Of a stretch of 64,000 nucleotides of DNA, positions 4,276 to 56,089 are shown piece after piece; position 1 is the first letter of the stretch; each line of letters starts with the position of its first letter. Made by a program: the position numbers and the translations under genes. This DNA comes from Candidatus Latescibacterota bacterium (GTDB taxonomy: Bacteria; Latescibacterota; UBA2968; UBA8231): the NCBI GenBank assembly GCA_965248355.1, contig OZ252098.1, positions 544,001-608,000 on the forward strand. The letters run 5' to 3'. A model generated the notes under the pieces. The model searched no databases. It was given only the letters and a program-made list of their open reading frames with translations, and was not told where the DNA came from.

Positions 4276-4312
4276 GCGGCAAGGGTCTCGGGCGTGCGAA
4301 GGGAGAGGCGCT

Positions 4313-5539: not shown

Positions 5540-5825
5540 GTCGATGCGCTCCTGTGCTCAGCCGGTCCCCCCCGGAAGGGGGAAATAATAGGCCGTCCCG
5601 GCCGAGGCCGCTCCACGTGGAAGATCTTCACCGCCTCGGTCGGCCTCTTCTCCGCCCGCTCTCTCGGGGGGCGGAGGGCCCGCCTGGTGTCGTGGAGAGG
5701 TTGCCGGCCGCACCCCTGGCAGCGATCCGAACCGCAAGTCAGAGAAGCAGTTATGGAGGATGGTCCGGGCCACGGGCCGACGCCTCGGGGGGCCCGGGGG
5801 GGCGCCGAATCCCCGCAAAAACCGC

Positions 5826-5854
5826 TTGGAGACCTCTCTTGACGGCCCTATATT
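5826..5854 (+). promoter_or_regulatory. Candidate sigma70-type promoter
   Basis: TTGGAG-17 nt-TATATT in the divergent intergenic region about 80 nt upstream of ATG 5934. Confidence 0.4.
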
Positions 5855-5933
5855 GCGCGGGTCCCTCCGGATCGAGCCGGTGAGGAGAATTCGTCATCAA
5901 CCATTTTACTCAACACAGCTCAGGAGCAAGCGC

Positions 5934-7849: not shown

Positions 7850-7901
7850 AGATGGACAAGGTGAGCGATCTCTTCGAGGGTCGCTCACCTTGTCTGTTTT
7901 A
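7850..7901 (+). terminator. Rho-independent terminator
   Basis: Perfect 14-bp stem GACAAGGTGAGCGA/TCGCTCACCTTGTC (7855-7894) followed by TGTTTT, about 25 nt after stop 7829. Confidence 0.8.
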
Positions 7902-8046
7902 TCCCCCTCTCCGGTCCCGGGGGACACGGCCTGATCCGGGGTTCGGCGCAGGCCGTCGCGGAGCCACTCGCCGGCCTCCACGATCCGTGGGCCGCGGGGC
8001 CGACAAGGGGCGGGATCCTCCGCTGGAAAAGGGAAGAAGGCTCTCA

Positions 8047-10194
8047 TTGGCAACAAGACTTCCTTCGCTCGTGTCGGGTCTGCTGCTTCTCGGCGTCCTC
8101 GCCGGGCCGGTCGGGGGCGATGTGCTCCGCATCGGCCACTGGGAGCAGACCACCTACTACCGCCACACCTTCAACGCCGATGAGGCGAGGGACGCCCTCC
8201 TGCGGATCACCGCCGTGGGGGAGTACGTCCTCTATCTCAACGGCGGCGAGGTCGCTTCGGACGGCGACTGGCTGACCGCCGAGGCGGTCCCCGTCTCCCT
8301 GCAACAGGGAGACAACCACATCGCCGTGGCGGTGACCAACGCCCCGGGAGAGGCCGGGGCCGGGCTCCTCCTCAGCCTTCAGGGCGGCCCGCTGGTCGCC
8401 CGCAGCACCTTCTCCGACGAGATCTCCCCGTGGTACTGGACGGGGGAGGGCCAGGAGGGCACGGGCTGGACGACGGCTGACGTGCAGAGCACGTGGAGCC
8501 GCGTGGGCGCCGGGTCGATCGACAGGGTGCGGGTGAGCGAGGCGATCTTCCATCCGGAGGCGGAGGTCGTCGCCGGCTATCCGAACGCGGTGAATCTCGC
8601 CAGCTCGCCGGAGGGCCGCATCGTCCTGGCCGACCAGCGCGGGCAGAACATCGCCCTCGGGGTCAACGCCAGCGAGGTGGGCGTCACCGACGGGAATATG
8701 GGCCTCCCGGTCTGGTCCCTGCCCCAGGGGCTGGGAGCGCTGAACCGCATCGTCGACATCGCCCTGCCGGACCTGACCCGGATCAACCGGGTCCGCGTGA
8801 TCACCAAGCCCCCCGAGGGCAACGAGACCTACAAGGGCAACTCCCTCCTCGGGTACTCGGTGCAGGTCAGCGAGGACCAGTCCCGCTGGATCGAGATGGG
8901 GGGCATCAACGACATCGAGGACCACGTCTTCACGGAGGTCCGCTTCAATCCCGTCCTGGCGCGCCACGTCCGCGTCCAGGTGACCCAGGCCGAGGTCGGA
9001 GCCGACCCCGCCAAGGTGGCGGAGGTCCAGATCTACGGGGTCGACTTTGTCCCCTCCGGGGCCTACGTCTCCCCGCCGCTGGACCTGGGGACCCCCGACG
9101 CGGTGAAGAACTTCGGCCGCGCCCGCTGGTGGGGGGAGGTGCTCCCCGCGACGTCCCTGAGCCTGCAGTTCAGCACCGGCGACAGCCCGGACACGACCGA
9201 CGGGAGCTGGAGCGCCTGGAGCGAGGAATCCGTGGACTCGGAGGTGCTCATCTCCTCACCCGAGCCCCGCCGCTACCTGCGCTACCGGGTGAATCTGCGC
9301 ACCGAGGATTTCGAGTTCACGCCCGCCCTCGACAGTCTCGAGATCGACTATGACCCTGAGGCGATCGCGGCGCGGAGCGCCACCGCTTCGGTGGTTCCCA
9401 ACGAGGCCCCCATGGGAGAGGACGTGGACTACCTCTTCAGCGTCGGCATGGCCCTGGAAGAGGGAGATGCCCTGGAACGGATCCGCATCCGCCTTCCCAG
9501 CCTCCCCACCGCCGTGAACTCGATCCAGTTCCTGGGGCAGGAGATCGCCGTGCCGGAGTTCCCCACGGGCGAGGGGGGCCTGGACGCGGGCGGGCGGATC
9601 CTGCGGCTGGCGCCCGCCGACGTGCGGGACGTGGACGTCGCCTTCGATCCCCCCCTGACCTCCGCGGACGGCGGCGAGATCTCCTTTGCCATCTCCGTGC
9701 AGTGCGCCCTCTACACCGACACCCACGATTTCCGCGCCTTCCTCTTCAGCCCGGGGTCCGACAATCCCCTGAACGTGCTGGAAGAGACCGCTGACGGCGC
9801 CTCCTGGACCGTCGTGGTGAGCGACGTCGTGGCCGGAGACCTGCTGGAGGTCAGAGCGCAGCCCCCGGCCTTCTCCCCCAATGGAGACGGGGTCAACGAC
9901 TTCACGATCATCGAGTTCGCCCTCACCAAGGTGACCGAGCCCCGCCGGGTGGACGTGGAGCTGTACGACCTGAGAGGGCGCCGGGTCCGCAGGCTGGAGA
10001 CGCCGCGGCTCATCGGCGGCCGGTACCTCCATCCCGGCCTGAGCGCGGCGGCGTCGACCTTCTCTCCCGGCTTCTGGGACGGAACGGACGATGCGGGCGA
10101 TCTCGTGCCGCCGGGGATCTACCTGTTCTCGGTGCGGGCGAACCTGGACGACGGCGACGAGGCCGTCTCCGGGGTGGTCCATGTGGTCTACTGA
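8047..10194 (+). CDS. Secreted multi-domain beta-sandwich protein (discoidin/F5-8-like) with C-terminal FSPNGDG (type B CTD/CHU_C-like) FlgD-type domain
   Basis: TTG start after GGGAAGAAGG with hydrophobic signal (start uncertain); YSVQVSEDQSRW, FNPVLARHVRV, AEVQIYG; C-terminal FSPNGDGVND...YDLRGRRVRRL...WDGTDDAG.LVPPGIY. Confidence 0.72.
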   Translation: MATRLPSLVSGLLLLGVLAGPVGGDVLRIGHWEQTTYYRHTFNADEARDALLRITAVGEYVLYLNGGEVASDGDWLTAEAVPVSLQQGDNHIAVAVTNAPGEAGAGLLLSLQGGPLVARSTFSDEISPWYWTGEGQEGTGWTTADVQSTWSRVGAGSIDRVRVSEAIFHPEAEVVAGYPNAVNLASSPEGRIVLADQRGQNIALGVNASEVGVTDGNMGLPVWSLPQGLGALNRIVDIALPDLTRINRVRVITKPPEGNETYKGNSLLGYSVQVSEDQSRWIEMGGINDIEDHVFTEVRFNPVLARHVRVQVTQAEVGADPAKVAEVQIYGVDFVPSGAYVSPPLDLGTPDAVKNFGRARWWGEVLPATSLSLQFSTGDSPDTTDGSWSAWSEESVDSEVLISSPEPRRYLRYRVNLRTEDFEFTPALDSLEIDYDPEAIAARSATASVVPNEAPMGEDVDYLFSVGMALEEGDALERIRIRLPSLPTAVNSIQFLGQEIAVPEFPTGEGGLDAGGRILRLAPADVRDVDVAFDPPLTSADGGEISFAISVQCALYTDTHDFRAFLFSPGSDNPLNVLEETADGASWTVVVSDVVAGDLLEVRAQPPAFSPNGDGVNDFTIIEFALTKVTEPRRVDVELYDLRGRRVRRLETPRLIGGRYLHPGLSAAASTFSPGFWDGTDDAGDLVPPGIYLFSVRANLDDGDEAVSGVVHVVY

Positions 10195-10224: not shown

Positions 10225-12930
10225 GTGAAGGCCGGAATCCTCACAGGATCCGCTGTCGCGGTGCTGGCGGCGCCCCTGCTGCTGTGCGGGTTCGCCGGGG
10301 CCCAGATGCTCTCCCGCGACGACTACCCCCTGTGGGAGAAGGAGGACTACGAGAACATCGGCCGCTTCGGGTACCGCGACTTCGACGAGCGCGACGTGGA
10401 GAGGCGGGTCTACGACCCCTTCGGCGTCTACCTGATCGACGGCGTCCCCGTCTTCGCCCTCGAGGAGACCCGCACCCAGGGACCCGAGCGGGGCAGCGGC
10501 ATCTTCAAGAGCCCCCTCTATCCGAGCATTTTCCGCAACCTGATGATCGGCATGGATTCCTACCGGGGCTGGGCGGCCTCGATCATGGTGGGCGACGCCG
10601 TGCCGACGCGGTTCTCCTCCCTCACCCTGAACCTGAGCCGGCTCAACGGCATCCGCTTCGACGCCTCCTCCCGCAAGTCGAGCTTCAGCCTGGTGGGATC
10701 GCGCATCTCCGACCCGGTGCTGCTGGCCACGGGTCTGAGCCAGAGCGGCGTGCAGGTCAACCCCGAAGGCGTCTTCGGAAGGCCGACCTTCGGCAGCTAC
10801 CTCGTGGGCGGCCACTGGGAGACGACCCTGGGCAACGTCCTCACCCTGGGATCCACCTACGTCAACGTCCACAACTTCGACAGCGTCGCGGGCCGCAACG
10901 AGGGGTCCCTCAAGGGGGTCGTCCCGTTCTCCGGCCTGGAAGAGGCGAAGTCGGTCTTCGTCATCGTGAGCGACGATTCCCACTGGGACGGCAACGGCCC
11001 CAAGGTCTTCCGCATCGAGATGTATGTCGACGGCGAGCTCCGGACCGATATCGAGCCCATGGTCCGGCTGCTGCCGTCGGTGCCCGCCCTCGTGGGCGCG
11101 GCCAACCGGGAGATCGGCCTGGGGACGAGCGAGATCAACCTGCAGCGGGCGGACAGGCCGTCGTGGCTCATCCAGAGCTACCAGATGGAGGAGATCGTCC
11201 GCGAGGGATATGCGCGCAGCGGCGCCCTCAGCCCCTTCACCAGCGGCGGCCTGTTCTTCAATGAGGGCCTGCCCGTAGGCCACGAGGGCGTTCCCTTCCT
11301 GCAGGCGGGGGGGACCGACGTCCTCGTGTACCGGTTCGAGGTGCCCCCGGGGACGAGGGAGGTCCGCTTCCGGGCTCTCGCCGCCGGGGACTACGTGATC
11401 GACGTGGCCAGCGGCCTCGGCTGGATCGGGACGGACGTGCAGTGGCGGGACTGGCACACGGTCAAGCGCGCCCCGAACAATGTCCGGGATGACGGCAACA
11501 TGGGGTGGGTCACCTTCCGGTACGGCTTTCCCACCGGCATGATCCTCTTCGGCGTGGACTTCGAGGCCAACCTTCTCGGGATCCAGGCCTGGGGGGAGTT
11601 CGCCCGGAACCGGTCCTACTTCAAGTTTCCCTCAGGCGAGGGGGAGCGCCTGGCCACCACCGAGGACGCCTGGTTCATCAACCTCTTCCGGGACATGGGG
11701 GCTTGGGACCTGGGCTTCGAGTACATGAACATGCCCTCGGCCTTCGGCACGAGCTTCCCGGCCCTCATGCAGAATCCCCGGCAGAACGTGATAGCCCCCT
11801 TCGAGCTGGTGGATGACAACGACGACCGGGACGAGTGGCCCGACCGCTGGGAGCAGGAGCGTGACTTCGCCTCCCTCAACCTCACGCCCGCCCCGGGATC
11901 GGGCCTGGGCTTCGGCGTCTTCCCCGGACTCGACGTGGACAACGACGGCCAGCGGGACAACGTCTGGTACCGCGGCGGCGACCGGGTCCTGACCTACTAC
12001 GATCAGCCCTTCGTCTTCGGCGACGACTTCAACAACAACGGGCTGGTGGACGGGTGGGAGAACGACAACCGGCCGGACTACCCCTACGACCAGGACCGCA
12101 GAGGAGGGCACGGCTTCCTCACCTGGAGGCCCTTCTCCGACCGGAAGAGCACCTGGGTGCGCCTCGGCCGCTACGACGTGCGTCAGCCCGACGGCGGCGG
12201 CCGGGACCGGGCCACCTACCTGAAGGCCAACTACCTGCGGCGCTGGGAGGGGCTGGGGCGGGTGCAGCTCAGCTACTACGGCAAGAGGGTCCGGGACGAC
12301 GTGCCCGACGATCTCTACCAGCTCAGCACCAGCTACCGCATCCTGCCCGACCGGCTGCTGCTGCGCAACAGCCTGGTGAACACCGTCCTGGCAGGAGCCC
12401 ACCTGAACACCAGCGCCCTGCCGAATCTCAACGTCTACAACGACATCCGGCTCTCCTTCAACGACCAGCGGGAGCTGATGGAGGAGAACTTCCAGCAGCC
12501 CGAGGCCCGGGTCACGACCGTGGGCTACGTGGCCCGGGCGGACTACAGCTGGCACCTCGGGCCAAACCTGAGCTTCGGTCCCATGTTCAAGGCCACCGTC
12601 AACCGCACCCTGGCGCGCCTGCCCAGCCTGAGGAGCCATACCTACACCCTGACACCGCTCTTCCGGGGTGACTACCGCCTCGCGCCGAGCACCGTGCTGC
12701 GAGGGGGGCTCCTGGGGCTGCCCTTCCGGGCGCAATACCGGAACCTGCTGTGGCCGTTCCTCGACAACGACTCCTGGTACTACATCCTGATCCTGGAGAA
12801 CCTCGCCAACTACCGCGGCATCGACGTGAGCACGAGCATCGGCTTCCAGAAGAACTTCGTCCGCTACATCTCCTCGCACCGGGTTCCCGCCGGATCCGAG
12901 CGCTACTTCATCCGGCTGCGGATCGGCTAG
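10225..12930 (+). CDS. Large exported hypothetical protein, predicted outer-membrane beta-barrel with acidic Ca-binding-type repeats (paralog 1 of 3)
   Basis: GGAGG RBS, signal peptide, DDNDDRDEWPD / FPGLDVDNDG / DFNNNGLVD motifs, alternating beta-strand pattern in the C-terminal third ending ERYFIRLRIG. Confidence 0.65.
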   Translation: MKAGILTGSAVAVLAAPLLLCGFAGAQMLSRDDYPLWEKEDYENIGRFGYRDFDERDVERRVYDPFGVYLIDGVPVFALEETRTQGPERGSGIFKSPLYPSIFRNLMIGMDSYRGWAASIMVGDAVPTRFSSLTLNLSRLNGIRFDASSRKSSFSLVGSRISDPVLLATGLSQSGVQVNPEGVFGRPTFGSYLVGGHWETTLGNVLTLGSTYVNVHNFDSVAGRNEGSLKGVVPFSGLEEAKSVFVIVSDDSHWDGNGPKVFRIEMYVDGELRTDIEPMVRLLPSVPALVGAANREIGLGTSEINLQRADRPSWLIQSYQMEEIVREGYARSGALSPFTSGGLFFNEGLPVGHEGVPFLQAGGTDVLVYRFEVPPGTREVRFRALAAGDYVIDVASGLGWIGTDVQWRDWHTVKRAPNNVRDDGNMGWVTFRYGFPTGMILFGVDFEANLLGIQAWGEFARNRSYFKFPSGEGERLATTEDAWFINLFRDMGAWDLGFEYMNMPSAFGTSFPALMQNPRQNVIAPFELVDDNDDRDEWPDRWEQERDFASLNLTPAPGSGLGFGVFPGLDVDNDGQRDNVWYRGGDRVLTYYDQPFVFGDDFNNNGLVDGWENDNRPDYPYDQDRRGGHGFLTWRPFSDRKSTWVRLGRYDVRQPDGGGRDRATYLKANYLRRWEGLGRVQLSYYGKRVRDDVPDDLYQLSTSYRILPDRLLLRNSLVNTVLAGAHLNTSALPNLNVYNDIRLSFNDQRELMEENFQQPEARVTTVGYVARADYSWHLGPNLSFGPMFKATVNRTLARLPSLRSHTYTLTPLFRGDYRLAPSTVLRGGLLGLPFRAQYRNLLWPFLDNDSWYYILILENLANYRGIDVSTSIGFQKNFVRYISSHRVPAGSERYFIRLRIG

Positions 12931-12935
12931 GCGCC

Positions 12936-15767
12936 ATGGGCAAGTCCGGCATCCTGCCTCGCCTCGTCGCCGCCGCCCTGGTCCTGCAGGGGGGGATGGG
13001 AGCGGACGCCCACGTGCGGGGTCCCGGCCTCTTCCTCTACCGGCCGGGCGAGGGCTACACGACCCATGCCAGGGAGGCCTACAAGCACTGGCCGCGCTCC
13101 TACCTCGTGCGGCCCGAGGATCTCGTCTTCGACGAGCTGGGGAACTTCGTCGTCGAGGGGATCGAGGTCTTCCGGCTGCGGGAGTCGCGGACCGTCGATC
13201 CCGAGCCGGGCAGCGTCATCGACAAGAGCCGCTACTTCAAGGACTACCTCAGCCGGCTGTCCGTCGCTTCCGATTCCTACGGGGACTTCCATACCACCCT
13301 CGCCGTGGGCGACCAGATCCGCACGAAGTTCACCTCGCTGACGCTGGACCTGGCGGCCATGAACGGCATCCGCTGGGACATGAGCACGGCCCGGGCGGAC
13401 TTCACCCTCATCAACTCGCGCCTGGACTATCCGATCTTCGACGTCGCCGCCAACGACGACAACAAGCAGCACAACTACAGCGTCTTCGGCACCAAGCCGC
13501 CGTTCTTCGCCACCTACCTGCTGGGCTCCCACCTGCGGACCAACATCGGGGCCCTGAACCTCGGGGCGGTGTGGGTCAACCAGTACCGCATCAACAGCCT
13601 GCTCGGGCGCGGAGAGTGGGACCTGCGCGGGGCGATTCCCGGGAACACGGCCTCCATCGACTACCTGGTGGTCCGGTTCGCCGACGGATCGATCGAGGAC
13701 GGCGGCGGACCCCGCGTGTACGATCTGGAGGTGCACATCAACGGCGAGCTGCGCCCGGACCTCAGGGTCCACCCGGACGCCGCCTCGGCGGCGGGCATCG
13801 ACGACACGGGGCGCATCGTCGTGACCCGCCACCACGTGGAGGACATCGATCCGGCCTTCCCCAACGGCGACAAGCAGTACCCGCGGGAGCTGGGCCGCGG
13901 GATCCCGCCGTACGTGGAGTTCATCAGCGGCCTCCTGCCCGAGGAGTTCCCGGGTGAGAGGGGGTACCTGGAGGCCCACGGCAAGGAGTACCTCCTCTAC
14001 TGGGTGCCCCTGGGCGAGGAGGACGTGAACGACGTGACCTTCAGGGCCAAGGTCGCCAACGACTACCGCATCAGCATGTCCGAGGTCTATGCCAACGTCC
14101 CCTCCCGGGCCCGCAGGGACCGGACCCCGCGCGATCGAAACCGGGCCCTCTACTTCCAGGATGTCTCCCACGCCCGGGGCAGGGTGCAGGACCTGTCCAA
14201 CCTGAAGGTCGTCGAGTTCCGCTACGGCCGGCAGACGGGAAGGATGCTCGCCGGCGTGCACGCCGACCTGGAGGTGGAGGACTTCTCCTTCCGGGCCGAG
14301 TACGACGTGAGCACCGACTTCCGGCGCTACCCCGTGGCCGGCGGCCGGCGCAGCCGCACCCGGGGAGACGCGTTCTTCGCCAACGCCGCCCTGCGGCGGG
14401 GCAAGTGGGAGTTCGGCGGGGAGGTGTTCTCCATGGACCCGGACTACGGCACCTCCCTGCACGTGCAGGACCCGTCGTACCAGAGCTTCGTCACCCTGCC
14501 CTTCCACCCCCTGGACAGCGAGATCGACGGCGGCCTCAAGGGCATCGACGGGTTCAACCAGAGCGCGCTCAATGGTACCCTGGTCTTCGACACGGTGGAG
14601 GACAACGACGACAAGGACCGCTTCGCCGACGCCCACTACATCGAATCGCGGCGCGATCTCGACGGCGTCTTCCCGGGCCTCGATCTCGACCAGGACGGCA
14701 GGCCCGAGACCAACCGGAACAACAACGGCATTCCGGACTACCTCGAGCCCTTCCTGCTCTTCGACGTCAACCCCGAGGAGTACGACTACGGGGACGACCT
14801 GAACAACAACGGGATCATCGACATCCGCGAGGACGACCCCACGGTCGACTATCCGTACGACCCCGACCTCGAGGGCTTCCACCTCTTCGCCGGCCTCAGT
14901 CCATTGCGAGGCGCCTCGCTCACCGTCGGCCGCTACCAGACCCGGCAGATCGCCGCCGGGGGGAGGAATCACGTCCTCTACGGCAAGGCGGTGTACGAAC
15001 GCCGCCTCCCCTTCTGGGGGAAGTTCACCCTCATCGACTTCGCCAAGAGGGTGGAGGACGACATCCGCAACGATGTCTTCCTCTTTCCCCGCAACGCCAC
15101 CTTCGAGCTGCAGGAGGACGTGAGCGGACGCATTACCGGAACGGGTCTCGGCGTGAACCTGATCGAGGATCCCCTGCGCATGCAGGACAGCTTCGTCAAC
15201 ACGGCGTTCGCCGCCCTGGACTTCACCGGGCTCGAGCCGATCGAGATCCACCTCGACTTCAAGCACGACTTGAACCACCAGCTCGGCCGGGACGAAGGGC
15301 GGTCCAACCGCATCATCCGGTCGACCTCCGTGGTCAAGGGGGAGTACGCCCGGCACCTCTCCGGCCGGTTCCGGGGCATCACCATCACCCCCAGGATCAA
15401 GGCGATGTCCCAGAAGCTGACCGACGAGCGCTTCCCGGTCCCGGTGCTCCACGAGTTCTTCCTCTATCCCATCCTGCGGCTCGACTGGAAGCTGACCCCC
15501 CTCACCAGCGTGCGCATGGGCGCCCAGGGATTCCCCTTCCTCCGCAGCCGCTCCCTCGACCTGGTCAATCCGGCGCGGGACTTCGACGGTGAGGACTACG
15601 TGGCCATCCTGGCCAACACCTTCACCTACCAGGGCTACGAGGTGAACTTCAACGTGGGATACCAGGTGCAGAAGAGGAGCTTCGACTCCCCGCTCCGGGC
15701 CCAGTCCAACGTGAACACCTCCATCTTCTTCTTCCGGGCCCTGGTGGGGCTTCGTCCGGTGATCTAG
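12936..15767 (+). CDS. Large exported hypothetical protein, predicted outer-membrane beta-barrel (paralog 2 of 3)
   Basis: ATG 12936 starts signal peptide MGKSGILPRLVAAALVLQGGMGADA; collinear shared motifs with paralogs 1 and 3 (FTSLTL, NGIRWD, VANDY, GVFPGLDLDQDG, DYPYD). Confidence 0.65.
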   Translation: MGKSGILPRLVAAALVLQGGMGADAHVRGPGLFLYRPGEGYTTHAREAYKHWPRSYLVRPEDLVFDELGNFVVEGIEVFRLRESRTVDPEPGSVIDKSRYFKDYLSRLSVASDSYGDFHTTLAVGDQIRTKFTSLTLDLAAMNGIRWDMSTARADFTLINSRLDYPIFDVAANDDNKQHNYSVFGTKPPFFATYLLGSHLRTNIGALNLGAVWVNQYRINSLLGRGEWDLRGAIPGNTASIDYLVVRFADGSIEDGGGPRVYDLEVHINGELRPDLRVHPDAASAAGIDDTGRIVVTRHHVEDIDPAFPNGDKQYPRELGRGIPPYVEFISGLLPEEFPGERGYLEAHGKEYLLYWVPLGEEDVNDVTFRAKVANDYRISMSEVYANVPSRARRDRTPRDRNRALYFQDVSHARGRVQDLSNLKVVEFRYGRQTGRMLAGVHADLEVEDFSFRAEYDVSTDFRRYPVAGGRRSRTRGDAFFANAALRRGKWEFGGEVFSMDPDYGTSLHVQDPSYQSFVTLPFHPLDSEIDGGLKGIDGFNQSALNGTLVFDTVEDNDDKDRFADAHYIESRRDLDGVFPGLDLDQDGRPETNRNNNGIPDYLEPFLLFDVNPEEYDYGDDLNNNGIIDIREDDPTVDYPYDPDLEGFHLFAGLSPLRGASLTVGRYQTRQIAAGGRNHVLYGKAVYERRLPFWGKFTLIDFAKRVEDDIRNDVFLFPRNATFELQEDVSGRITGTGLGVNLIEDPLRMQDSFVNTAFAALDFTGLEPIEIHLDFKHDLNHQLGRDEGRSNRIIRSTSVVKGEYARHLSGRFRGITITPRIKAMSQKLTDERFPVPVLHEFFLYPILRLDWKLTPLTSVRMGAQGFPFLRSRSLDLVNPARDFDGEDYVAILANTFTYQGYEVNFNVGYQVQKRSFDSPLRAQSNVNTSIFFFRALVGLRPVI

Positions 15768-18700
15768 TGGCGCTCGTCACCATCAGCTGCCTGGCGGCCC
15801 TGGCCGCCCTCGGCTCCCTCGGCCCCGCGCCCGCCGGCGCCCAGGAGACGGAGAGCTGGGGTCCGCGCACGGGCATCGAGATCCCCGAGGTGCCGCGCAT
15901 CCAGGCCGACCGGATGTTCCTCAGGCGGCCGTCGGAGCCCTACAGGAACTACGCCCACCGGGAGAGGATGTACACCAACTACCCCACGATCCTCTCGCCG
16001 TACCGGGATCCCAAGCGGTTCTTCTACGGCCCCCTGGGCAACCGTCTGGCCTACGGGATCCCCGGCTACGACTGGGTGGAGACCAGGGGCCTGGGCCCTC
16101 AGAGCCGGGGCGGCTCCTCCCTGGCGATCACCGGGAACCTCTACCACTATCCCGGCCGCGAGCAGACCACCTACCGGCGCTACTTCGAGGACGTGCTGAC
16201 CGTCTCGGAGCAGACCGACTCCTGGTCGGGGAGCCTGACCATCGCCCAGGAGATGAGGGGTCGCTTCACGCCCCTGACCCTGAAGGTCAACGCCTTCCCG
16301 GGGTTCCGCCTCGACTGGGGCACCGAGCACAGCGACCTGTCGGCCCTGTTCATGACCTGGAGCACGGTGCGCATGGGCGCCCTGCACATGCAGCGCCGGG
16401 TGGGCCTGCTGGACTTCGGGCTGACCTACGTCAACGCCCACGAGAGCTACAGCGACAGCTACGGGCACGCCTTCTCCCGCAAGGGCGTGCTGCGCCACAA
16501 CCAGCCCTACCCGGAGATCATCGCCGTCAAGTTCTCCGACGATTCGCCGGAGGACGACCGGGGCGGACCCCACATCGTGGAGCTGAACATCTACGTGAAC
16601 GGGGTCCTCCGGAAGGACATCGTCCCCGACGTGATCGAGCAGATCGACGGCGTCAGGCGGTCCTCGGTGGGCAAGCTCAGCACCCAGGGGCTGGTGCGCA
16701 ACGCCTACGCCGAGCTGTCGGCGGCCTTCACCTCCTCCGTGCCCACCGGGACCACCTACATGCGCTATCGCCACGACGAGGCGCCCCTGTACATGGACTA
16801 CCTGTTCTTCCGGGACCTCAGGCTGCACGATCCCGTCGACCCCGAGCGCGAGTTCACGACCTATGTCTGGCGCGGGGTGGAGTTCCCCGTGGAGGAGCCC
16901 TGGCAGCTGGCCGTCAACCTGCAGCCGGATGCGTCCACGGACCGCAGCTACTACAAGGACAACGCCGACGAGATCCTGGCCGAGCGGTTCACCGAGGAAG
17001 AGGTCCTCGGCATCCTCATCCGCAACAATTCCCTGAACAACATCTTCAGGCCTCTGGACCAGTCGTTCCGGTGGCGCAGTGACGAGACGGGCCCGATCGA
17101 GGTCTCCGGAGACGACTTCGTCGTCTACTACTTCAACCTGGCGGGGCAGGGCTTCGTCCAGTCCGTCTCCTTCGACGCCCTCGTGGCCAACGACTACAAG
17201 GTCGAGGTGGGCACCGTGGCCCGGAAGAGAAAGTTCGATCTCGACGATCCGAGGGCGCCCATCGACGTCCCCTACACGGGGCGCTACGGCCAGCCCACGC
17301 TCTATCGCACCGTCAGGCGCGCCCCGGGCAACGTCCAGGACATGTCCAACCTCAAGCGCATCACCTTTCACATCGGCTCGGAGACGGGGATGGAGATCTT
17401 CGGCGCCGACTTCAGCACCAACATCCTCGGCCTGAAGATCGACGGGGAGTACGCCCGGAGCCTGCACCACTTCCAGTACCCCGACGGCGTCGTCGGCCCC
17501 GATCCAACCACCCCCGTGCGCGCCGGCAAGCGCTTCGGCACGAAGGGCGAGGCGTACTACCTCGTGGTGCGCAGGGAACACGAGCGCTTCGACTGGGGCG
17601 CCGAGTACTTCCACATGGGGCCGAACTACAACACGGAGCTGCTCATGCTGGGCACGCCGGCCGTGCCCCACTTCAACAGCACCCTGCGGCTGATGATGGT
17701 GGACGACAACGACGACGACGACCGCTTCCCCGACTCCTGGTTCCAGCAGTACATCTCCGGCTTCGTCAACGAGGGGGTGGACGCCGACGGCGTCTTCCCC
17801 GGCAAGGATCTCGACGGCGACGGCCGGCCGGACACCAACAGGAACGGCAACCGCCTGCCCGACTATCTCGAGCCTTTCCTGATGTACGACGTGGAATCGG
17901 ACGACTACGTCTACGATCTCGACATGAACAACAACGACCGTCCCGACAGCCGCGAGGACGACCCCGAGCCCGACTACCCCTACGCCGAGGACCTGGAGGG
18001 CTACCACGCCATCGGCACCTACCGGCTGACGAAGAACCTGGCCCTTTCCCTGGGGCGCCTCGACGCCCGGCAGGTGCACGGCGGCGGCGAGAATCTGATG
18101 AACTACGGGCGCCTGAGCTGGACCGCGAGGCAGCCGCGGCTCGGACAGCTCCACGTGGAGAACACCCTCAAGCGCGTCTGGGACTCGGTTCCCGACCGCG
18201 TGCTCGTCTCCTCCGACTTCTCCAGGGGGCCCTTCGGCAAGGTGCACCTCGCCGGCTTCGGGTACCAGCAGCAGTGGGACCTGAACCTGATCGAGGACGA
18301 TCTGAGGTACCGCAACAGTTGGGCGAACCGGTTCTTCGTCCGTGCGGACCTGAGCCCGCTCCGGGGCCTGAGGATGCACCACAACCTCCGCTACGAGCTC
18401 AACCGCCAGCAGCGGGGGTTCCTGGACGACGGCACCCATCAGAGGAGCAACGAGATCCGCGCCCTGAGCTCGGTCCACCGCGTGGACTACACCTGGCGCC
18501 GGTTCAGGAACAGGCTGGAGATCGGGCCGGCCATGAAGCTGCTCTTCCTCAAGCGCACCCAGGAGACGGTCGACGTGCCCCTGGCGGACGAGACCACGGT
18601 CATCCCCATCTTCAAGGCCAGCTACCACGCGACGCCCAGGACCACCTTCCGGGCCGGCGTCCAGGGACTGCCCTTCTGGCAGTACCGCCTGAAGGACAAC

Positions 18701-18901
18701 GGCAACGACTGGAACAGCTTCGAGCAGAACGTCTACGTTCTGATGATGACCAACCGCTCCGACTACTTCGGCTACGAGATCGTGACCAACGCCGGCATGA
18801 CCTTCGACCGGCGGACCTACGACGACCCCTTCCGCGGGGCGGACAACACCGACATCATGGCCACCTTCGTGCAGATCGTGGCAGGAGCACCCCAGCTTTG
18901 A
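15767..18901 (+). CDS. Large exported hypothetical protein, predicted outer-membrane beta-barrel (paralog 3 of 3)
   Basis: Start overlaps previous stop; signal peptide; FTPLTL, FSDDSPEDD.GGP, VANDY, DDNDDDDRFPD, GVFPGKDLDGDG, DYPYAED. Confidence 0.65.
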   Translation: MALVTISCLAALAALGSLGPAPAGAQETESWGPRTGIEIPEVPRIQADRMFLRRPSEPYRNYAHRERMYTNYPTILSPYRDPKRFFYGPLGNRLAYGIPGYDWVETRGLGPQSRGGSSLAITGNLYHYPGREQTTYRRYFEDVLTVSEQTDSWSGSLTIAQEMRGRFTPLTLKVNAFPGFRLDWGTEHSDLSALFMTWSTVRMGALHMQRRVGLLDFGLTYVNAHESYSDSYGHAFSRKGVLRHNQPYPEIIAVKFSDDSPEDDRGGPHIVELNIYVNGVLRKDIVPDVIEQIDGVRRSSVGKLSTQGLVRNAYAELSAAFTSSVPTGTTYMRYRHDEAPLYMDYLFFRDLRLHDPVDPEREFTTYVWRGVEFPVEEPWQLAVNLQPDASTDRSYYKDNADEILAERFTEEEVLGILIRNNSLNNIFRPLDQSFRWRSDETGPIEVSGDDFVVYYFNLAGQGFVQSVSFDALVANDYKVEVGTVARKRKFDLDDPRAPIDVPYTGRYGQPTLYRTVRRAPGNVQDMSNLKRITFHIGSETGMEIFGADFSTNILGLKIDGEYARSLHHFQYPDGVVGPDPTTPVRAGKRFGTKGEAYYLVVRREHERFDWGAEYFHMGPNYNTELLMLGTPAVPHFNSTLRLMMVDDNDDDDRFPDSWFQQYISGFVNEGVDADGVFPGKDLDGDGRPDTNRNGNRLPDYLEPFLMYDVESDDYVYDLDMNNNDRPDSREDDPEPDYPYAEDLEGYHAIGTYRLTKNLALSLGRLDARQVHGGGENLMNYGRLSWTARQPRLGQLHVENTLKRVWDSVPDRVLVSSDFSRGPFGKVHLAGFGYQQQWDLNLIEDDLRYRNSWANRFFVRADLSPLRGLRMHHNLRYELNRQQRGFLDDGTHQRSNEIRALSSVHRVDYTWRRFRNRLEIGPAMKLLFLKRTQETVDVPLADETTVIPIFKASYHATPRTTFRAGVQGLPFWQYRLKDNGNDWNSFEQNVYVLMMTNRSDYFGYEIVTNAGMTFDRRTYDDPFRGADNTDIMATFVQIVAGAPQL

Positions 18902-18947: not shown

Positions 18948-19490
18948 ATGAGGAACCTCATCCTGACGCTCGCCCTCTCCGGGATCCTCCTGCCGTGCCG
19001 CGCCCACGGCGAGGAGGACATCTTCGCCGCCCGGAAGACCGCCACCCGGAAGGAAGCCCTGATCCTGTCGGCCCTCTTCCCGGGGCTGGGGCAGCTCTCC
19101 ACCGGGCGCAAGGTGACGGGAACGATCCTGCTGGTCGCCGAGATCGGCTCCCTGGCCACGGCCCTGACGGCCAACGAGAACTACAACACCCGTCTCGACA
19201 ACTTCGAGCGGTTGAAGTCGGAGTACGAGCAGATGGCGGCGGGCAACAGCCGGCACGACCTGGCCGAGCAGCGCTGGCAGGAGCTGAGCGCCGAGGCCGA
19301 CGACCTGGACGGCCTGCACAACATCCGCCGCGCCTACACGGCCGCCGCCGTGGGCATCTATGTCTACAACCTGGTCGACATCCTTCTCCTCAACCCGCCC
19401 GAGGCCGGATCGGCCCAGGCCTGGAGCCTGCGCGCCGTGCCGGGTCTGGGGGAGGGTCCCGCCCGGTTGATGGTGACGGGAAGCTTCTGA
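18948..19490 (+). CDS. DUF5683-like membrane/secreted protein
   Basis: Signal peptide; ALILSALFPGLGQL..GRK..G motif; helical middle; IYVYNLVDI near C-terminus. Confidence 0.6.
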   Translation: MRNLILTLALSGILLPCRAHGEEDIFAARKTATRKEALILSALFPGLGQLSTGRKVTGTILLVAEIGSLATALTANENYNTRLDNFERLKSEYEQMAAGNSRHDLAEQRWQELSAEADDLDGLHNIRRAYTAAAVGIYVYNLVDILLLNPPEAGSAQAWSLRAVPGLGEGPARLMVTGSF

Positions 19491-19509: not shown

Positions 19510-19887
19510 ATGAGCAAGGCTCTCTGGCCGTTGCCGGCCATCCTGATCCTCTACATCTCGGCGTGCAGCGAGGAGCACAGCCTGCCCTCCAAGTTCCACG
19601 AGGGCCGGGTGGAGACGCCCTCGGAGCTGGAGGCGAGGTTCGAAGGGGACCAGGTCGTCCTGGAGTGGAGCGTCGCGGCGCCCGAGGAGGTCCTCTACTA
19701 CATCGTCACCCTCTCGGAGGGCACCACCGGGGCCGAGCGGCAGTACACCGCTCCCGGAGACAGCACGACCTGGGCGCTGGTGGAGTTCGCCTGGACCGAC
19801 TCCTTCTACATCTTCCAGGTGCAGGCGGTGGATCATACCGATTTCGTGGGCGAGGGCTCCAACGTGGACACGCTCTTCGTCCCATGA
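19510..19887 (+). CDS. Lipoprotein with fibronectin type III-like domain
   Basis: Lipobox ISAC; TPSELEARFEGDQVVLEW...YIFQVQAVD...EG.SN. Confidence 0.65.
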   Translation: MSKALWPLPAILILYISACSEEHSLPSKFHEGRVETPSELEARFEGDQVVLEWSVAAPEEVLYYIVTLSEGTTGAERQYTAPGDSTTWALVEFAWTDSFYIFQVQAVDHTDFVGEGSNVDTLFVP

Positions 19888-19911
19888 TGCCGAGGCTGGA
19901 GGGTATTGCAG

Positions 19912-21162
19912 ATGCCTGATCCGACTCGCGGCCGCTTCGGAGCCCCCTCCGACGCCCTGAACATCCGGCGGCTCCACCGGGAGAACCGCAAGGTCGCCTG
20001 GGTGGCCTACGCCGTGGCCGCCACCATGGCCGCCTCGGTCTTCGGCTATTTCGCCGCCGCCAAGCGGGAGAAGCCGGCGCCCAAGCCGCTGGCCATGGAG
20101 TTCATCATCCGCAAGCCGCTGGCCAGGAAGTCCTTCCGCATGAGGAAGGCCCAGATCGAGAAGCGCGTCATGACCAGGCGGCTGGTCACCTCCAAGCCGA
20201 AGCTCGCCCACACCCCTCCGAGGGAGATCCGCCGCGCCGACGCCCTGGGCAACGTGGCCGTCTTCGCGCACCAGATCGACGCGGGGACGAGCGTGGGCAC
20301 CGGCACCGTCACCCCCGAGATCGCCTCGGTCGAGATCCGCAGCTCGAAGGATCCCGAGAAGCGCATCAGCATGCAGGAGGAGTTCCTGGATCTCAACGCC
20401 CTCGACACGGGCAAGTACCGGGGCATGGTGATCCAGGACCCCACGGACCGCAGGAACATCCGCGGCTTCGTCTACCTCGCCCTGGCCTGGGGCAACGACC
20501 TGCAACCCGACGCGCCGCGCTCGGTCTCCCGGCTCGCCGACGGCATCAACGCCTACACGGGCATCCAGGCCAAGGTGGCCGACCACATGTTCCTCGACTC
20601 CCCCGAGCTGTTCAAGACCCCCTTCGTCTACATCACCGACAAGGACGGCTTCGAGCTGACCGGCAAGGAGGTGGAGAGCCTCGGGCGGTACATGCGCAGC
20701 GGCGGCTTCGTCTTCGCCGACAACGACCGCCCCGATCTCAACTTCGGCCCGGCGGAAGCCTCGCTGCGGGCCATGTTCGGCCAGGCTCTCGGCCGGCACG
20801 GCAAGCTCGAGAGGATCCCCAACAGCCATCCCATCTACAACAGCTTCTTCGACCTCGACGGCCCGCCGGTGGGGGGCGAGTACCTCAGCGTCAGGGGCAA
20901 TCCCGACATCTTCTACCTCAACTCGGCCGAGGCGACCGACGTCTACTACCAGCCGGACGAGGTGCAGTTCCTCGAGGGGGTCTTCATCGAGGGGCGCCTC
21001 GTGGCGGTCTACTCCGACATGGGGTACGGGAGCATCTGGCAGGACGAGTTCGAGAACGAGCCCCAGCTGAGGATGGGCGTGAACCTCGTGGTCTTCGCCC
21101 TCACCCAGGAAGGCTCCATCGCGCAGCAGCAGATCGACTTCTACACGCAGCTCACGGATTAG
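19912..21162 (+). CDS. Membrane-anchored DUF4159-domain protein with TonB-like basic/Pro-rich stalk
   Basis: Single TM, KPAPKP and K/R-rich linker, then ELFKTPFVYIT, LGRYMRSGGFVFADN, IPNSHPIYNSFFD, GRLVAVYS, LRMGVNLVVFALT; directly upstream of exbB. Confidence 0.7.
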   Translation: MPDPTRGRFGAPSDALNIRRLHRENRKVAWVAYAVAATMAASVFGYFAAAKREKPAPKPLAMEFIIRKPLARKSFRMRKAQIEKRVMTRRLVTSKPKLAHTPPREIRRADALGNVAVFAHQIDAGTSVGTGTVTPEIASVEIRSSKDPEKRISMQEEFLDLNALDTGKYRGMVIQDPTDRRNIRGFVYLALAWGNDLQPDAPRSVSRLADGINAYTGIQAKVADHMFLDSPELFKTPFVYITDKDGFELTGKEVESLGRYMRSGGFVFADNDRPDLNFGPAEASLRAMFGQALGRHGKLERIPNSHPIYNSFFDLDGPPVGGEYLSVRGNPDIFYLNSAEATDVYYQPDEVQFLEGVFIEGRLVAVYSDMGYGSIWQDEFENEPQLRMGVNLVVFALTQEGSIAQQQIDFYTQLTD

Positions 21163-21189: not shown

Positions 21190-21918
21190 ATGTGGGAGAT
21201 CGTAAAGAGCGGCGGCCCCTTGATGGTGCCCCTGACCATCTGCGCCATCCTGGCCGTCGCCTACACCATCGAGAGGCTCTGGATCCTCAACCACATCCCG
21301 GTTCCCGACCGCGCCAAGGAGGAGCTGGACCGGCTCGAGGCCTCCCTCCTCAACGGCGGCCGGGAGGCGGTGGTGGAGGAGTGCAACCAGGGCAAGGGCG
21401 TGCTCAACTTCATCTTCTCCTCCCTGCTGAAGCGCCACGACACCCTGCTCATCGAGCAGCGGGAGTTCCAGGAGACGAACCAGGAGATCGTGCGTCTGGC
21501 CGACTCGGCGGGGGGAGGAGAGGTGGGCCGCTTCATGGTCATGCAGAGAGAGCAGACCGACATGAAGGGGGAACTCGTGATCGAGACGGAGGGGGCGGCG
21601 CGCACCTACCTGGCCAGGAACCTCCCCACCCTGTACACCATCGGCAACATCAGCCCCCTCCTGGGCCTGCTCGGCACGATCATGGGCATGATCATCGCCT
21701 TCGAGTCGATCGCCGTGGCCGGCGCCGGAGACCCCAGGGTGGTGGCCGGCGGCATCTCCCAGGCCCTGGTGACGACGGCCACGGGGCTGATCATCGCCAT
21801 CCCGACGATCGTCGCCTACCGCTACCTGTCGCGCCGCGCCGACCGGGCCCTGGAGCGGGTCGAGGTCTACGGCCACGCCTTCGCCAACACCCTCCTCCTC
21901 TCCCGGCTGCCGGCCTAG
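21190..21918 (+). CDS. exbB: MotA/TolQ/ExbB proton channel family protein
   Basis: GGPLM.PL..C.I, SPLLGLLGTIMGMIIAF, GGISQALVTTATGLIIAIP. Confidence 0.92.
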   Translation: MWEIVKSGGPLMVPLTICAILAVAYTIERLWILNHIPVPDRAKEELDRLEASLLNGGREAVVEECNQGKGVLNFIFSSLLKRHDTLLIEQREFQETNQEIVRLADSAGGGEVGRFMVMQREQTDMKGELVIETEGAARTYLARNLPTLYTIGNISPLLGLLGTIMGMIIAFESIAVAGAGDPRVVAGGISQALVTTATGLIIAIPTIVAYRYLSRRADRALERVEVYGHAFANTLLLSRLPA

Positions 21919-21935
21919 GCCTCCAGGAGCACGGC

Positions 21936-22352
21936 ATGGCCAGACACCGAGTTGAGCACATCCGCAGCGTCGCCGAGGAGGGGGAGCCCGATCTGACGCC
22001 GATGATCGACTGCGTCTTCCTGCTGTTGATCTTCTTCATGGTCACCACCGTCTTCCTGCACACCAAGGGGCTGGACGTGGACCTGCCGGCGCCGAGCGAG
22101 GCGGAGGAGGAGCAGAAGAAGGATATCAACGTGGTGCTGAGCGAAGAGGGGGAGATCGAGATCGGGGGGGAGCCCGTGGCGGCCTCCGACCTCGGCACCG
22201 GCCTGACCACCGCCATGGAAGAGGCCAACAACGAGAACATCATCGTCCAGGCCCACGAGGAGTGCGCCCAGAAGCACGTGGTCTACGTGGTGGACACGGC
22301 CAAGGGGGTAGGGGTGAAGGGGATCGCCCTCGTGCGGGTCCAGGAGGAGTAG
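21936..22352 (+). CDS. exbD: ExbD/TolR biopolymer transport protein
   Basis: DLTPMIDCVFLLLIFFMVTT with conserved Asp; AGGAG RBS. Confidence 0.92.
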   Translation: MARHRVEHIRSVAEEGEPDLTPMIDCVFLLLIFFMVTTVFLHTKGLDVDLPAPSEAEEEQKKDINVVLSEEGEIEIGGEPVAASDLGTGLTTAMEEANNENIIVQAHEECAQKHVVYVVDTAKGVGVKGIALVRVQEE

Positions 22353-22354
22353 GT

Positions 22355-22765
22355 ATGGCCAGGCAGCAGAGTACCGAGCGGGAGCCGGACTTCAACCTGA
22401 CGCCGATGATCGACTGCGTCTTCCTGCTGTTGATCTTCTTCATGGTCACCACCGTCTTCAAGCAGCCTTACAGCCTGCAGCTGGAGCTGCCCGAGGCCCA
22501 GCAGGCGCACCGGGTGCAGGAGAAGAAGCTGGTGAGCTCGATCACCGCCGACGGGCGCATGGAGATCAACCGCGAGCTGGTCAGCGCCGCCGACCTGGAG
22601 CAGGTGCTTCTCCGGCACAAGCAGGGGACGAGGAGCCTGACCCTGATCGTGCGCACCGACAAGGAGACCAAGCACAAGTTCCTCCTCGATCTGATCGAGG
22701 TGGCCAAGCGCCTGCGGATCGAGAAGGTGGTGCTGGCCACCGAAGACGAGAAGGTCGAGCTCTGA
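22355..22765 (+). CDS. exbD: ExbD/TolR biopolymer transport protein, second copy
   Basis: NLTPMIDCVFLLLIFFMVTT; LIVRTDKET. Confidence 0.92.
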   Translation: MARQQSTEREPDFNLTPMIDCVFLLLIFFMVTTVFKQPYSLQLELPEAQQAHRVQEKKLVSSITADGRMEINRELVSAADLEQVLLRHKQGTRSLTLIVRTDKETKHKFLLDLIEVAKRLRIEKVVLATEDEKVEL

Positions 22766-30872: not shown

Positions 30873-30939
30873 CGCCGCGCCAACCACGTCAGAGCCGGCG
30901 GTCTGTGGCCGCCGCAACCGAGCAGGTTCACGAGGGCCC

Positions 30940-55960: not shown

Positions 55961-56042
55961 AGGGTCGCCGGAGGGCCCGGCGGGCACACGGGGATCGAGT
56001 GCTTGATCGCACGGTCTCTTGTCCTATATTGATGCATACAGT

Positions 56043-56089
56043 GGGTTACAGCAAAGGGTTACAGCAAATTTTGGGTTACAGCAAATTTT
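56043..56089 (+). repeat. Three direct copies of GGGTTACAGCAAA (last two followed by TTTT)
   Basis: Copies at 56043, 56056 and 56073 in an AT-rich intergenic patch. Confidence 0.95.

Follow-up and report, generated by a model that had tools for sequence, protein, structure and literature searches.

The window analysed here, a stretch of 64,000 nucleotides from a Candidatus Latescibacterota bacterium (NCBI GenBank assembly GCA_965248355.1, contig OZ252098.1, positions 544,001 to 608,000 of the forward strand), carries three tandem genes, A, B, and C, whose products belong to an unnamed family of 870–1050-amino-acid (aa) proteins without a curated model. The genes represent three ancient orthologous clades that are kept in the order A-B-C, an order that predates the split of the sampled Latescibacterota lineages, and they are under purifying selection. 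The preferred reading, to which a probability of about 0.4 is given for the whole chain, is that the proteins are giant SlpA/OmpM-like barrels which form a hetero-oligomer and serve the energised uptake of glycan substrates. The three genes are the following.

Paralog A: 10225..12930, + strand; 901 aa; GTG start; signal peptide ending AGAQ; position-1 clade
Paralog B: 12936..15767, + strand; 943 aa from the ATG at 12936; position-2 clade; best motif retention
Paralog C: 15767..18901, + strand; 1044 aa; GTG start; position-3 clade; longest first excursion

A preliminary description of the window had placed three tandem collinear paralogs at 10225–18901. Open reading frames (ORFs) are indeed present there on the + strand, and the alignment of A, B, and C is collinear over the whole length, and the two others reach 33% and 32% identity with A. 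In the ORF list, B is extended upstream to 12750, a run-on that overlaps A; from the ATG at 12936, B begins 5 nt after the stop codon of A. The TAG of B and the GTG of C overlap by one base, and a GGAGG lies 11 nt 5′ of the GTG of A. The window is GC-rich, with a GC content of 0.66–0.69 around the three genes, and their GC content at third codon positions is 0.90–0.94, like that of other real genes in the window. DNA-level likeness among the paralogs is confined to an acidic cluster, where B and C share 152 nt at 77%, and the duplication is therefore old. Against the orthologs in locus L002, the ratio of nonsynonymous to synonymous substitution rates (dN/dS) is 0.087–0.099 for A, B, and C, with dS saturated at 1.5–1.9. 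The limited residual DNA likeness and the low dN/dS together mark the genes as old, functional paralogs. Promoter and terminator scans of the window gave no excess over shuffled background, and the window holds no tRNA gene and no Rfam match.

Each of the three proteins starts with a signal peptide. Beyond it, the Kyte-Doolittle mean over any 19-aa stretch reaches at most 1.19, which leaves no helical membrane segment; the mature chains contain no cysteine, and the net charge is −15 to −28. All motifs listed in the preliminary description occur in A, B, and C, as confirmed by alignment and motif check. From the N-terminal side these are F[ST]xLTL..[NP]G[IF]R.D, [SA]D.S..D..GP, F.A..A.DY, and RA.[GN].V.D..N, followed by [DE]DNDDxD, GVFPGxDxDxDG, and DxNNN...D..E.D...DYPY. 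The strand-like C-terminal part that follows had been put at about 250 aa and actually spans ~300 aa.

Scans of A, B, and C against Pfam and NCBIfam gave nothing at the family cut-offs; the sole match is a sub-threshold one to SlpA_C in C. Solved structures gave no sequence match to whole-family profiles, one remote member, or four sub-regions; the C-terminal 300 aa returned nothing meaningful among them, and a match of the first excursion to a type I restriction-modification protein on a 'VANDY' motif was dismissed as chance. A word-indexed search found 38 relatives of B, for which every name given is 'hypothetical protein', and in the eight relative clusters inspected in full, 15 of 15 named members are 'hypothetical' or 'uncharacterized'. 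The description of a new family is borne out by these results, since no confident full-length match to a characterised family turned up in Pfam, NCBIfam, or the solved structures. An exhaustive profile search yielded 872 representatives at 50% clustering with E ≤ 1e-3 (622 at 1e-10 and 288 at 1e-30), the best 150 of which were examined, and a search with the family alignment recovered the same proteins as the single-sequence search. Plasmid and phage collections contained no relative of B. Longer fused forms of the family did not turn up, which is weak evidence, and an internal duplication of the putative barrel was not supported (probability 0.1). A literature search returned nothing on this family or gene cluster.

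In species-representative genomes, a scan turned up 565 stretches that encode relatives; the best 80 were kept, and these amount to 73 loci in 46 genomes. The records of 50 of the 73 loci carry the label Latescibacterota and those of 15 the label Gemmatimonadota, and Zixibacteria, KSB1, Handelsmanbacteria, Myxococcota, Bacteroidota, Nitrospinota, and 'Zipacnadia' account for one locus each. A single genome may hold at least nine family copies. The ORFs of the compared loci are those called in this analysis, and a family hidden Markov model run over all of them identified 36 loci with an A-B-C triplet, the window included. Nearly every B ortholog sits in such a tandem triplet.

The position of a gene in the triplet corresponds to its clade. 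In a FastTree tree of 147 full-length members, from which partial ORFs at contig ends were excluded, all 35 position-1 genes fall into one clade (support 98), as do 36 of 37 position-2 genes (support 100) and 34 of 35 position-3 genes (support 99); both exceptions come from L053, a cluster of a different kind. An IQ-TREE tree (LG+G4) of the 75 rows left after those above 62% identity to a retained row had been dropped gives each of the three clades an SH-aLRT support of 100. Its C clade consists of 31 rows, 13 of them single or double copies, and nine of the 75 rows, made up of a divergent group and of single copies found in other phyla, lie outside the three clades. In all 37 pairs, A and B are separated by −53 to +69 nt. 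The gap between B and C is equally tight in 25 of 36, and in the other 11 it measures 0.6–5.8 kb with other cluster genes in between. Directly 5′ of position-2 genes there is always a family gene (36/36), and among the loci with room, L018 alone shows A and B but no C, within the 5 kb remaining downstream. The co-occurrence of three orthologous clades, which the preliminary description had raised for a survey, is thus found with high support and in one fixed order. The complete cluster occurs twice in several genomes, for example as L001 and L027 on one chromosome. Moreover, opposite-strand family members lie a few kb from triplets in L016 (1–2418, −), L021 (3–2255, −), and L010 (20112–22613, −), so some genomes cluster at least four family copies.

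The chains of A, B, and C are predicted to be an antiparallel β-meander with two large excursions, and the proteins are probably outer-membrane β-barrels. The meander emerges from a mean-field covariation analysis of 275 sequences (effective number 198) over 498 well-aligned columns with a shuffled control. Antiparallel ladders occupy 130 cells above threshold versus 23 in the null, whose maximum score is 5.5. They mostly join sequence-successive strands, several of them overlapping, and extend toward both termini (107–128, 140–182, 183–194, 421–442, 436–466, 651–662, 669–681, 684–740, 741–757, 754–785 with a score of 10.3, 801–833, 827–849, and 845–872). The pairing 192–426 scores 7.2, and B residues ~200–420 are therefore read as an excursion between neighbouring strands, which gives the 'inserted domain' of the preliminary description its place. 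The pairing 491–646 scores 5.3, just under the null maximum, and suggests that aa ~495–645, which hold the acidic cluster, form a second excursion. The 'β-strand-rich' termini of the earlier account find their support in sequence-derived amphipathic periodicity and in these ladders. An alternating-hydrophobic terminal strand is present in 123 of the 147 members and is followed by a median of five further residues.

The segment aligned to B 385–560 was taken from the 147 members and scanned at E ≤ 0.01, and the one recurrent family signal was SlpA_C, the β-barrel domain of Deinococcus-Thermus SlpA in Pfam. Fifty-two of the 147 segments match it below the cut-off, consistently on profile positions ~200–313 of 656 and in all three clades as well as in single copies. 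Full-length scans detected SlpA_C in 6 of 31 members and in 3 of 28 remote representatives. In the window, C matches with 15.3–18.4 bits (E 0.007 at 15.3 bits; cut-off 35) over the following stretch.

SlpA_C-like stretch of C: 17375..17635, + strand; aa 537–623; profile positions 229–303; sub-threshold

The segments used for the SlpA_C scan, for the solved-structure search with the SlpA_C-like segment, and for the acidic-cluster and first-excursion searches carry an N-terminal offset of ~10–40 aa, an estimate for which 17 aa was measured in B. This offset concerns rows other than those of the window, whose coordinates are exact. The count of 52 may be slightly low because the segments were cut without an N-terminal trim. 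In a protein atlas, B groups with unnamed Latescibacterota and Gemmatimonadota clusters (0.98–0.99); the closest named cluster is DUF6029, a TonB-dependent-receptor-like barrel family, at 0.89, which serves as a lead only.

The acidic cluster is the most conserved region of the family. Asp, Glu, and Asn make up 34–40% of its residues, compared with 17–19% in the whole proteins.

Acidic cluster of A: 11812..12087, + strand; aa 530–621; holds GVFPGLDVDNDG (11914–11949) and the EF-hand-like loop DFNNNGLVDGWE (12025–12060)
Acidic cluster of B: 14598..14858, + strand; aa 555–641; holds GVFPGLDLDQDG (14664–14699) and the EF-hand-like loop DLNNNGIIDIRE (14796–14831)
Acidic cluster of C: 17702..17983, + strand; aa 646–739; second loop degenerate (DMNNNDRPDSRE)

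Loops of the form Dx[DN]xDG bind Ca2+. The pattern Dx[DN]x[DN]G is present in 140 of the 147 members (shuffled mean 15.2), [DE]DNDDxD in 128, and GVFPGxDxDxDG in 102. A strict 12-residue EF-hand-type loop, defined as D-x-[DN]-x-[DN]-G-x-[ILV..]-[DSTNE]-x-x-[DE], occurs in 89 of 147, including A (DFNNNGLVDGWE) and B (DLNNNGIIDIRE) and not C; among the clades, B retains the motifs best and C least. Seven PDB chains were found with a profile of the cluster, all below significance (E 0.11–1.6). Six of them are EF-hand proteins (polycystin-2, SCaMC-1, parvalbumin, and three ALG-2 entries), and their alignments sit exactly on the 'vF..lD.d.dG..D' loop, GVFPGLDxDxDG. Pfam shows no EF-hand family in A, B, or C, and the TSP_3 profile of the thrombospondin type 3 repeat, as in OmpA-like proteins, has no match in them at E ≤ 1. 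Ca2+ binding by the acidic cluster is plausible and a reasonable conclusion from the motif. The 'Ca-binding loop or plug' proposed earlier can be kept at the level of the motif, with the strict loop in A and B, the sub-significant EF-hand matches, and the suggested placement in an excursion in its favour.

The triplet lies within a larger cluster of envelope genes. Neighbours were counted in the 36 triplet loci, including the window, with flanks of at most 10 kb.

CTD1: 5934..7829, + strand; secreted protein with a type A type IX secretion sorting domain (Por_Secre_tail/FlgD_ig); N-terminal ~500 aa without a family; 28 of 36 loci
CTD2: 7852..10194, + strand; F5/8 type C lectin-like protein with a CHU_C/FlgD_ig type-B-like sorting domain, FSPNGDGVND; 34 of 36 loci
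DUF5683 protein: 18948..19490, + strand; 14 of 36 loci
Small lipoprotein: 19510..19887, + strand; lipobox YISAC; no family match; 12 of 36 loci
DUF4159 protein: 19906..21162, + strand; one N-terminal membrane helix and a basic/Pro linker (TonB/TolA-like topology); 30 of 36 loci
ExbB/TolQ-type proton channel: 21190..21918, + strand; 11 of 36 loci
ExbD/TolR, first copy: 21915..22352, + strand
ExbD/TolR, second copy: 22262..22765, + strand; listed with a GTG start, the true start probably lying later
DUF4340 protein: 22770..24113
TPR protein of ~415 aa: 24110..25357, + strand; N-terminal membrane helix; homologs in 17 loci
Giant TPR protein of 1093 aa: 25354..28635, + strand; repeated YbgF/CpoB-like units; 28 of 36 loci
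Lipoprotein with the lipobox LAAQGC: 28659..29453, + strand; 28 of 36 loci
Conserved secreted protein of ~300 aa: 29462..30367, + strand; no family; follows the lipoprotein in nine loci

A CTD2-like gene stands directly 5′ of the position-1 gene in all 33 loci with room. The DUF4159 protein is related to 4i66, a solved and uncharacterised structure, and the only literature found on DUF4159 is the Pfam paper. The best NCBIfam scores are all under the cut-offs and amount to 86 bits for TolQ, 61 bits for TolR, and, with the giant TPR protein, 213 bits for YbgF/CpoB; the latter protein also scores 82 bits on the PorW/SprE model, whose cut-off is 250. As listed, the ORFs of the two ExbD copies share 91 nt. 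Homologs of the LAAQGC lipoprotein have a C-terminal extension in 18 of 41 ORFs. In L011 (19961–21196), the only copy scanned against Pfam, the extension is a TonB_C domain (26.6 bits versus a cut-off of 24.6). It is unusual for a TonB C-terminal domain to be carried by a lipoprotein instead of an inner-membrane-anchored protein. The secreted protein at 29462–30367 was considered as a split-off TonB_C-like part, and this was not supported when tested.

Sorting tails are found elsewhere in the window as well. A DUF362-domain protein at 48374–50575 (+) has a FlgD_ig sorting tail, and a 1635-aa protein at 56019–60926 (+) combines LRR, cadherin-like, Big_9, and fn3 domains with a FlgD_ig-type tail. 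The latter overlaps the one lower-GC stretch of the window (0.597 at 56001–58000) and may be a recently acquired surface adhesin. Since at least four tailed proteins occur in 64 kb, the FlgD_ig-type tail is the general surface-sorting signal of the organism. Just 3′ of the cluster, 30817–31335 (+) encodes a CesT_Tir_1/YbjN-type protein of the type III secretion chaperone-like family (E 1e-40), with no secretion system in sight. A DDE_3 transposase fragment at 1–753 (+) runs off the start of the window.

Family members that stand singly have other surroundings. In L041 (Zixibacteria) and L061 (KSB1), a CTD2-like gene, a PorP/SprF-like barrel, one family barrel, a giant TPR protein, ExbB, ExbD, a DUF4159 protein, and a lipoprotein form one operon in this order. 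The PorP/SprF-like gene is also found directly 5′ of the family barrel in L058, L064, and L018, where the other neighbours were partly checked, and triplet loci have no such gene. These PorP/SprF-like proteins (L061 8971–9945, L041 6814–7773, and those of L064, L058, and L018) end in ...SIGFxF, and their consensus has no conserved Cys-bearing tail. They differ in this from SprF, for which a twin-cysteine C-tail is named (PMC12635249). Homology between the family and its PorP/SprF-like neighbours was rejected (hhalign probability 0.2).

The single and double copies of the C clade were followed through 10 loci and 60 neighbours and sit among catabolic and transport genes. These include GH95 and BNR/sialidase-like genes in L044; GHL6/GH42-like, PhyH, and enolase-superfamily genes in L052; sulfatase, SDR, enolase-superfamily, and xylose-isomerase-like/UxuA-like genes in L066; UxuA, GFO/IDH, aldo-keto reductase, and SBP_bac_5 genes in L043; MFS and xylose-isomerase-like genes in L070; DUF4838 in L063; and DUF6785/6784 in L065. 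No catabolic gene was seen in L054. A full-length CTD1 homolog lies directly 5′ of the barrel gene in L044 and L052 (27% identity, 631 aa, E 6e-47), and one is nearby in L065 and L047. The 'substrate-specific channels' of the preliminary description find support only for the single C-clade copies in these catabolic loci. In L065, two DUF6785/6784 genes (4820–6793 and 14199–16130) flank two family barrels. The window itself encodes DUF6785+DUF6784 proteins at 2299–4353 (−), with ~10 hydrophobic segments and hence polytopic, and at 50572–52542 (+); both stand beside sugar-catabolic genes (GlcNAc 2-epimerase-like, amidohydrolase_2). The DUF6785/6784 proteins may be inner-membrane transporters paired with barrels; no literature on DUF6785 was found.

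Paralogy, motifs, clades, gene order, the conserved surroundings, and purifying selection are established here; the barrel fold, Ca2+ binding, the hetero-oligomer, energisation, and uptake belong to the proposal. Taken as a mechanism, the preferred reading would run as follows. A, B, and C would be giant outer-membrane barrels, distant kin of the SlpA/OmpM barrel domain that have lost its cell-wall tether. The first excursion (B aa ~200–420) and the second (~495–645) would both fold into or over the pore, the second carrying the DDNDD motif, GVFPGxDxDxDG, and the EF-hand-like DxNxNGxxDxxE loop. The acidic cluster would bind Ca2+ and thereby stabilise the pore insert, as Asp metal sites do in SlpA. 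A single ancestral barrel, still present in Zixibacteria and KSB1, may have been triplicated early in Latescibacterota, and the C type may later have given rise to the single copies in catabolic loci. The three proteins are tentatively taken to assemble as one hetero-oligomeric outer-membrane unit, at somewhat less than even odds; by analogy with the SlpA/OmpM homotrimers, a heterotrimer is the obvious guess. One such unit fits better than three independent channels because A, B, and C are kept together, ordered, and translationally coupled.

The unit would be the outer-membrane part of a conserved envelope module made up of CTD1, CTD2, the giant TPR proteins, the bitopic DUF4159 protein, the lipoproteins (one fused to TonB_C in part of the loci), and ExbB with two ExbD proteins. 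An energised outer-membrane function is suggested by the constant lectin-type proteins, ExbB/ExbD, the TonB-like bitopic protein, the TonB_C lipoprotein, and the TPR scaffolds. Most likely, the module would draw on the proton-motive force to help capture glycan-derived substrates and move them across the outer membrane, the tailed surface proteins serving as binders, much like a SusC/SusD pair though assembled from unrelated parts. Such an uptake role of the A-B-C module is possible, with the odds rather against it. The fully specified version is speculative and unlikely in all its details: a previously undescribed, proton-motive-force-driven machine in the envelope of Latescibacterota and allied candidate phyla of the FCB group, with a plug-less heterotrimer of giant barrels with Ca2+-stabilised inserts, gated by ExbB/ExbD through the DUF4159 protein and the TonB_C lipoprotein and working with type IX-displayed lectins as a counterpart of SusC/SusD or of a translocon, with the single C copies as substrate-specific offshoots.

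Several results weigh against this reading. On the side of the barrel, the best SlpA_C match (33.3 bits, E 2.4e-8) stays under the gathering score of 35, which is never reached, and A and B of the window have no SlpA_C match. In the reverse direction, the family profiles and the SlpA_C-like segment missed SlpA among the solved structures. Pairing between the first and the last strand is not seen by covariation (best score 3.9–4.1), and the last residue is aromatic in only 27 of the 147 members. The 'outer-membrane protein' of the preliminary description is nevertheless likely in view of the signal peptides, the lack of a later helix and of cysteine, the SlpA_C matches, and the meander; the closure of the barrel is the part that did not appear. 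On the side of energised uptake, A, B, and C have no match to a plug domain or to the TonB_dep_Rec barrel in Pfam or NCBIfam at E ≤ 1, and membership of the TonB-dependent transporters, which consist of a plug and a 22-stranded barrel, fails for this reason. ExbB is found within the flanks in only 11 of the 36 triplet loci, and the window lipoprotein lacks a TonB_C-like extension. The closest triplet neighbours are envelope and not catabolic genes, and just four of the 10 single/double-copy loci have a CTD1-like gene. Latescibacterota genomes are rich in catabolic genes (PMC4454575), so the catabolic context of the C-type copies may be partly chance.

The main rival is reasonably seen in a type IX secretion-like platform for anchoring, translocation, or gliding. 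The barrels would export or hold tailed proteins, the giant TPR protein would stand for PorW/SprE or PorE, and an ExbB/ExbD motor would replace PorL/PorM. In its favour are the CTD2-like gene that precedes position 1 wherever there is room (33/33), the 82 bits of the TPR protein on the PorW/SprE model, and the gene order of Zixibacteria, KSB1, and three other loci, where a type-B-like tailed protein is followed by a PorP/SprF-like barrel, the family barrel, the giant TPR protein, ExbB, and ExbD; the PorP-PorE-cargo complexes (PMC9143113) are a precedent. However, those 82 bits lie far under 250 and the same protein reaches 213 bits on YbgF/CpoB; A, B, and C are unlike SprA/Sov, PorV, and PorP; the triplet loci are without a PorP/SprF-like gene; and the single C-clade copies in catabolic loci mostly have no adjoining tailed-protein gene. 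With these points considered, the platform is improbable, though not negligibly so. Three independent homo-oligomeric channels, each with its own substrates and adjacent for co-regulation only, would need no A-B-C complex. Members of the C clade do stand alone in 13 of 31 rows, ancestral-type loci of other phyla have a single barrel gene, the excursions vary in length by clade, and the SlpA/OmpM relatives are homotrimeric (PMC9388160). What speaks for the hetero-oligomer instead is that A and B, wherever the locus has room, were always accompanied by a neighbouring family gene (position 2 is preceded by a family gene in 36/36), that the order is fixed in 36 loci with tight or overlapping junctions, and that L018, the only case of A and B without C, has just 5 kb left downstream. 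Independent channels are judged unlikely, yet a serious contender.

Two further explanations are given a low probability. An envelope scaffold or tether, in which SlpA/OmpM-like barrels and a Tol-Pal-like set (TolQ/TolR-type proteins and a CpoB-like TPR protein) hold the outer membrane to the inner layers, draws on the sub-cut-off TolQ, TolR, and YbgF/CpoB matches and on SlpA, itself viewed as a scaffold and not a pore (PMC9388160). Against it, Pfam scans detect neither SLH nor OmpA_C nor any further peptidoglycan-binding domain in the three proteins, lectin-type surface proteins are members of the cluster, and several genomes carry the whole cluster twice (L001 and L027, for example), which would be odd for a housekeeping tether; the tether is regarded as quite improbable. 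No greater credence is given to secreted or periplasmic β-rich Ca2+-binding proteins outside the membrane, such as a surface layer or an adhesin scaffold. In their favour, the terminal residue is not aromatic in 120 of 147 members, the strand-closure signal is absent from the covariation, and the SlpA_C matches are sub-threshold. The same matches, however, recur at the same profile positions in all clades, and the ladders pair mostly sequence-successive strands across both termini. A, B, and C also have none of the type IX sorting tails that surface proteins of the window carry, and show neither adhesin-typical repeats nor internal duplication.

If the preferred reading of a heteromeric giant barrel holds, A, B, and C would provide a rare example of an outer-membrane barrel that is obligately hetero-oligomeric, and the range of the SlpA/OmpM barrel type would grow to include the FCB group, with a new role there. 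The uncultured Latescibacterota are widespread and degrade polymers, and unspecified porins have been credited with the passage of substrates through their outer membrane (PMC4454575). With its copy number, its lack of a curated model, and its lectin, ExbB/ExbD, and catabolic neighbours, the family is a concrete candidate for this missing route. A profile model for the family would name hundreds of 'hypothetical proteins'.

Among known systems, the Agl-Glt machinery of Myxococcus combines a TolQ/TolR-type motor, TPR proteins, paralogous outer-membrane barrels, and a surface adhesin. The cluster shares with it one ExbB/TolQ and two ExbD/TolR proteins, a giant TPR protein, paralogous outer-membrane proteins, and a surface protein. 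In contrast, the GltA/B barrels are small (~250–280 aa), and motility is neither known nor implied for these uncultured bacteria. The SusC/SusD systems of Bacteroidota, which pair a TonB-dependent transporter with a glycan binder on the surface, are similar in that the gene of a large outer-membrane protein lies directly 3′ of that of a surface lectin-type protein. In addition, single copies of the family occur among glycoside hydrolase and sugar-acid genes, and the module includes ExbB/ExbD and a TonB_C-bearing protein. The differences are the missing plug and TonB_dep_Rec matches and the partners, which are proteins with type IX sorting tails and not SusD-like lipoproteins.

In the type IX PorP/PorE arrangement, PorP-like barrels serve as anchors for tailed proteins of type B, and genes of PorE-like TPR lipoproteins are often neighbours of porP-like genes (PMC9143113). 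The single-copy loci of other phyla resemble it with a type-B-like tailed protein, a PorP/SprF-like barrel, and envelope genes that include a TPR protein, and CTD2 carries the FSPNGDGxND tail. However, Pfam and NCBIfam scans of A, B, and C gave no match to SprA/Sov, PorV, or PorP/SprF. The family is unrelated to PorP and three times larger, its triplet loci are without a PorP-like gene, and the WD40, CRD, and OmpA_C domains of PorE are absent.

The closest comparison is with SlpA/OmpM, trimeric outer-membrane proteins with barrels of 28–30 strands from Deinococcus-Thermus and other diderm phyla. SlpA forms homotrimers of 30-stranded barrels, with the barrel domain at residues 254–1167 (PMC9388160). 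Asp-based metal sites stabilise its pore inserts, a metal site is also found at the subunit interface, and the protein is interpreted as a scaffold rather than a pore. The family differs in the sub-threshold score of its best match (33.3 versus 35, with A and B unmatched) and in the lack of the N-terminal, cell-wall-binding SLH domain, which is absent from A, B, and C (E ≤ 1) and from 31 family members (E ≤ 0.1). Moreover, it has three distinct paralogs in place of a homotrimer, its neighbourhood consists of sorting-tail proteins, ExbB/ExbD, and TPR proteins, and it occurs in the FCB group, whereas SlpA/OmpM belong to Terrabacteria. On the other hand, both have a signal peptide and a barrel-sized chain (914 aa in the SlpA barrel domain versus 870–1050 aa here), and both carry large inter-strand inserts, with Asp metal sites in SlpA and the invariant acidic cluster in the family. 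Positions ~200–313 of SlpA_C (PF21620) are matched in 52 of 147 members, and the trimer of SlpA has its parallel in genes that come in threes.

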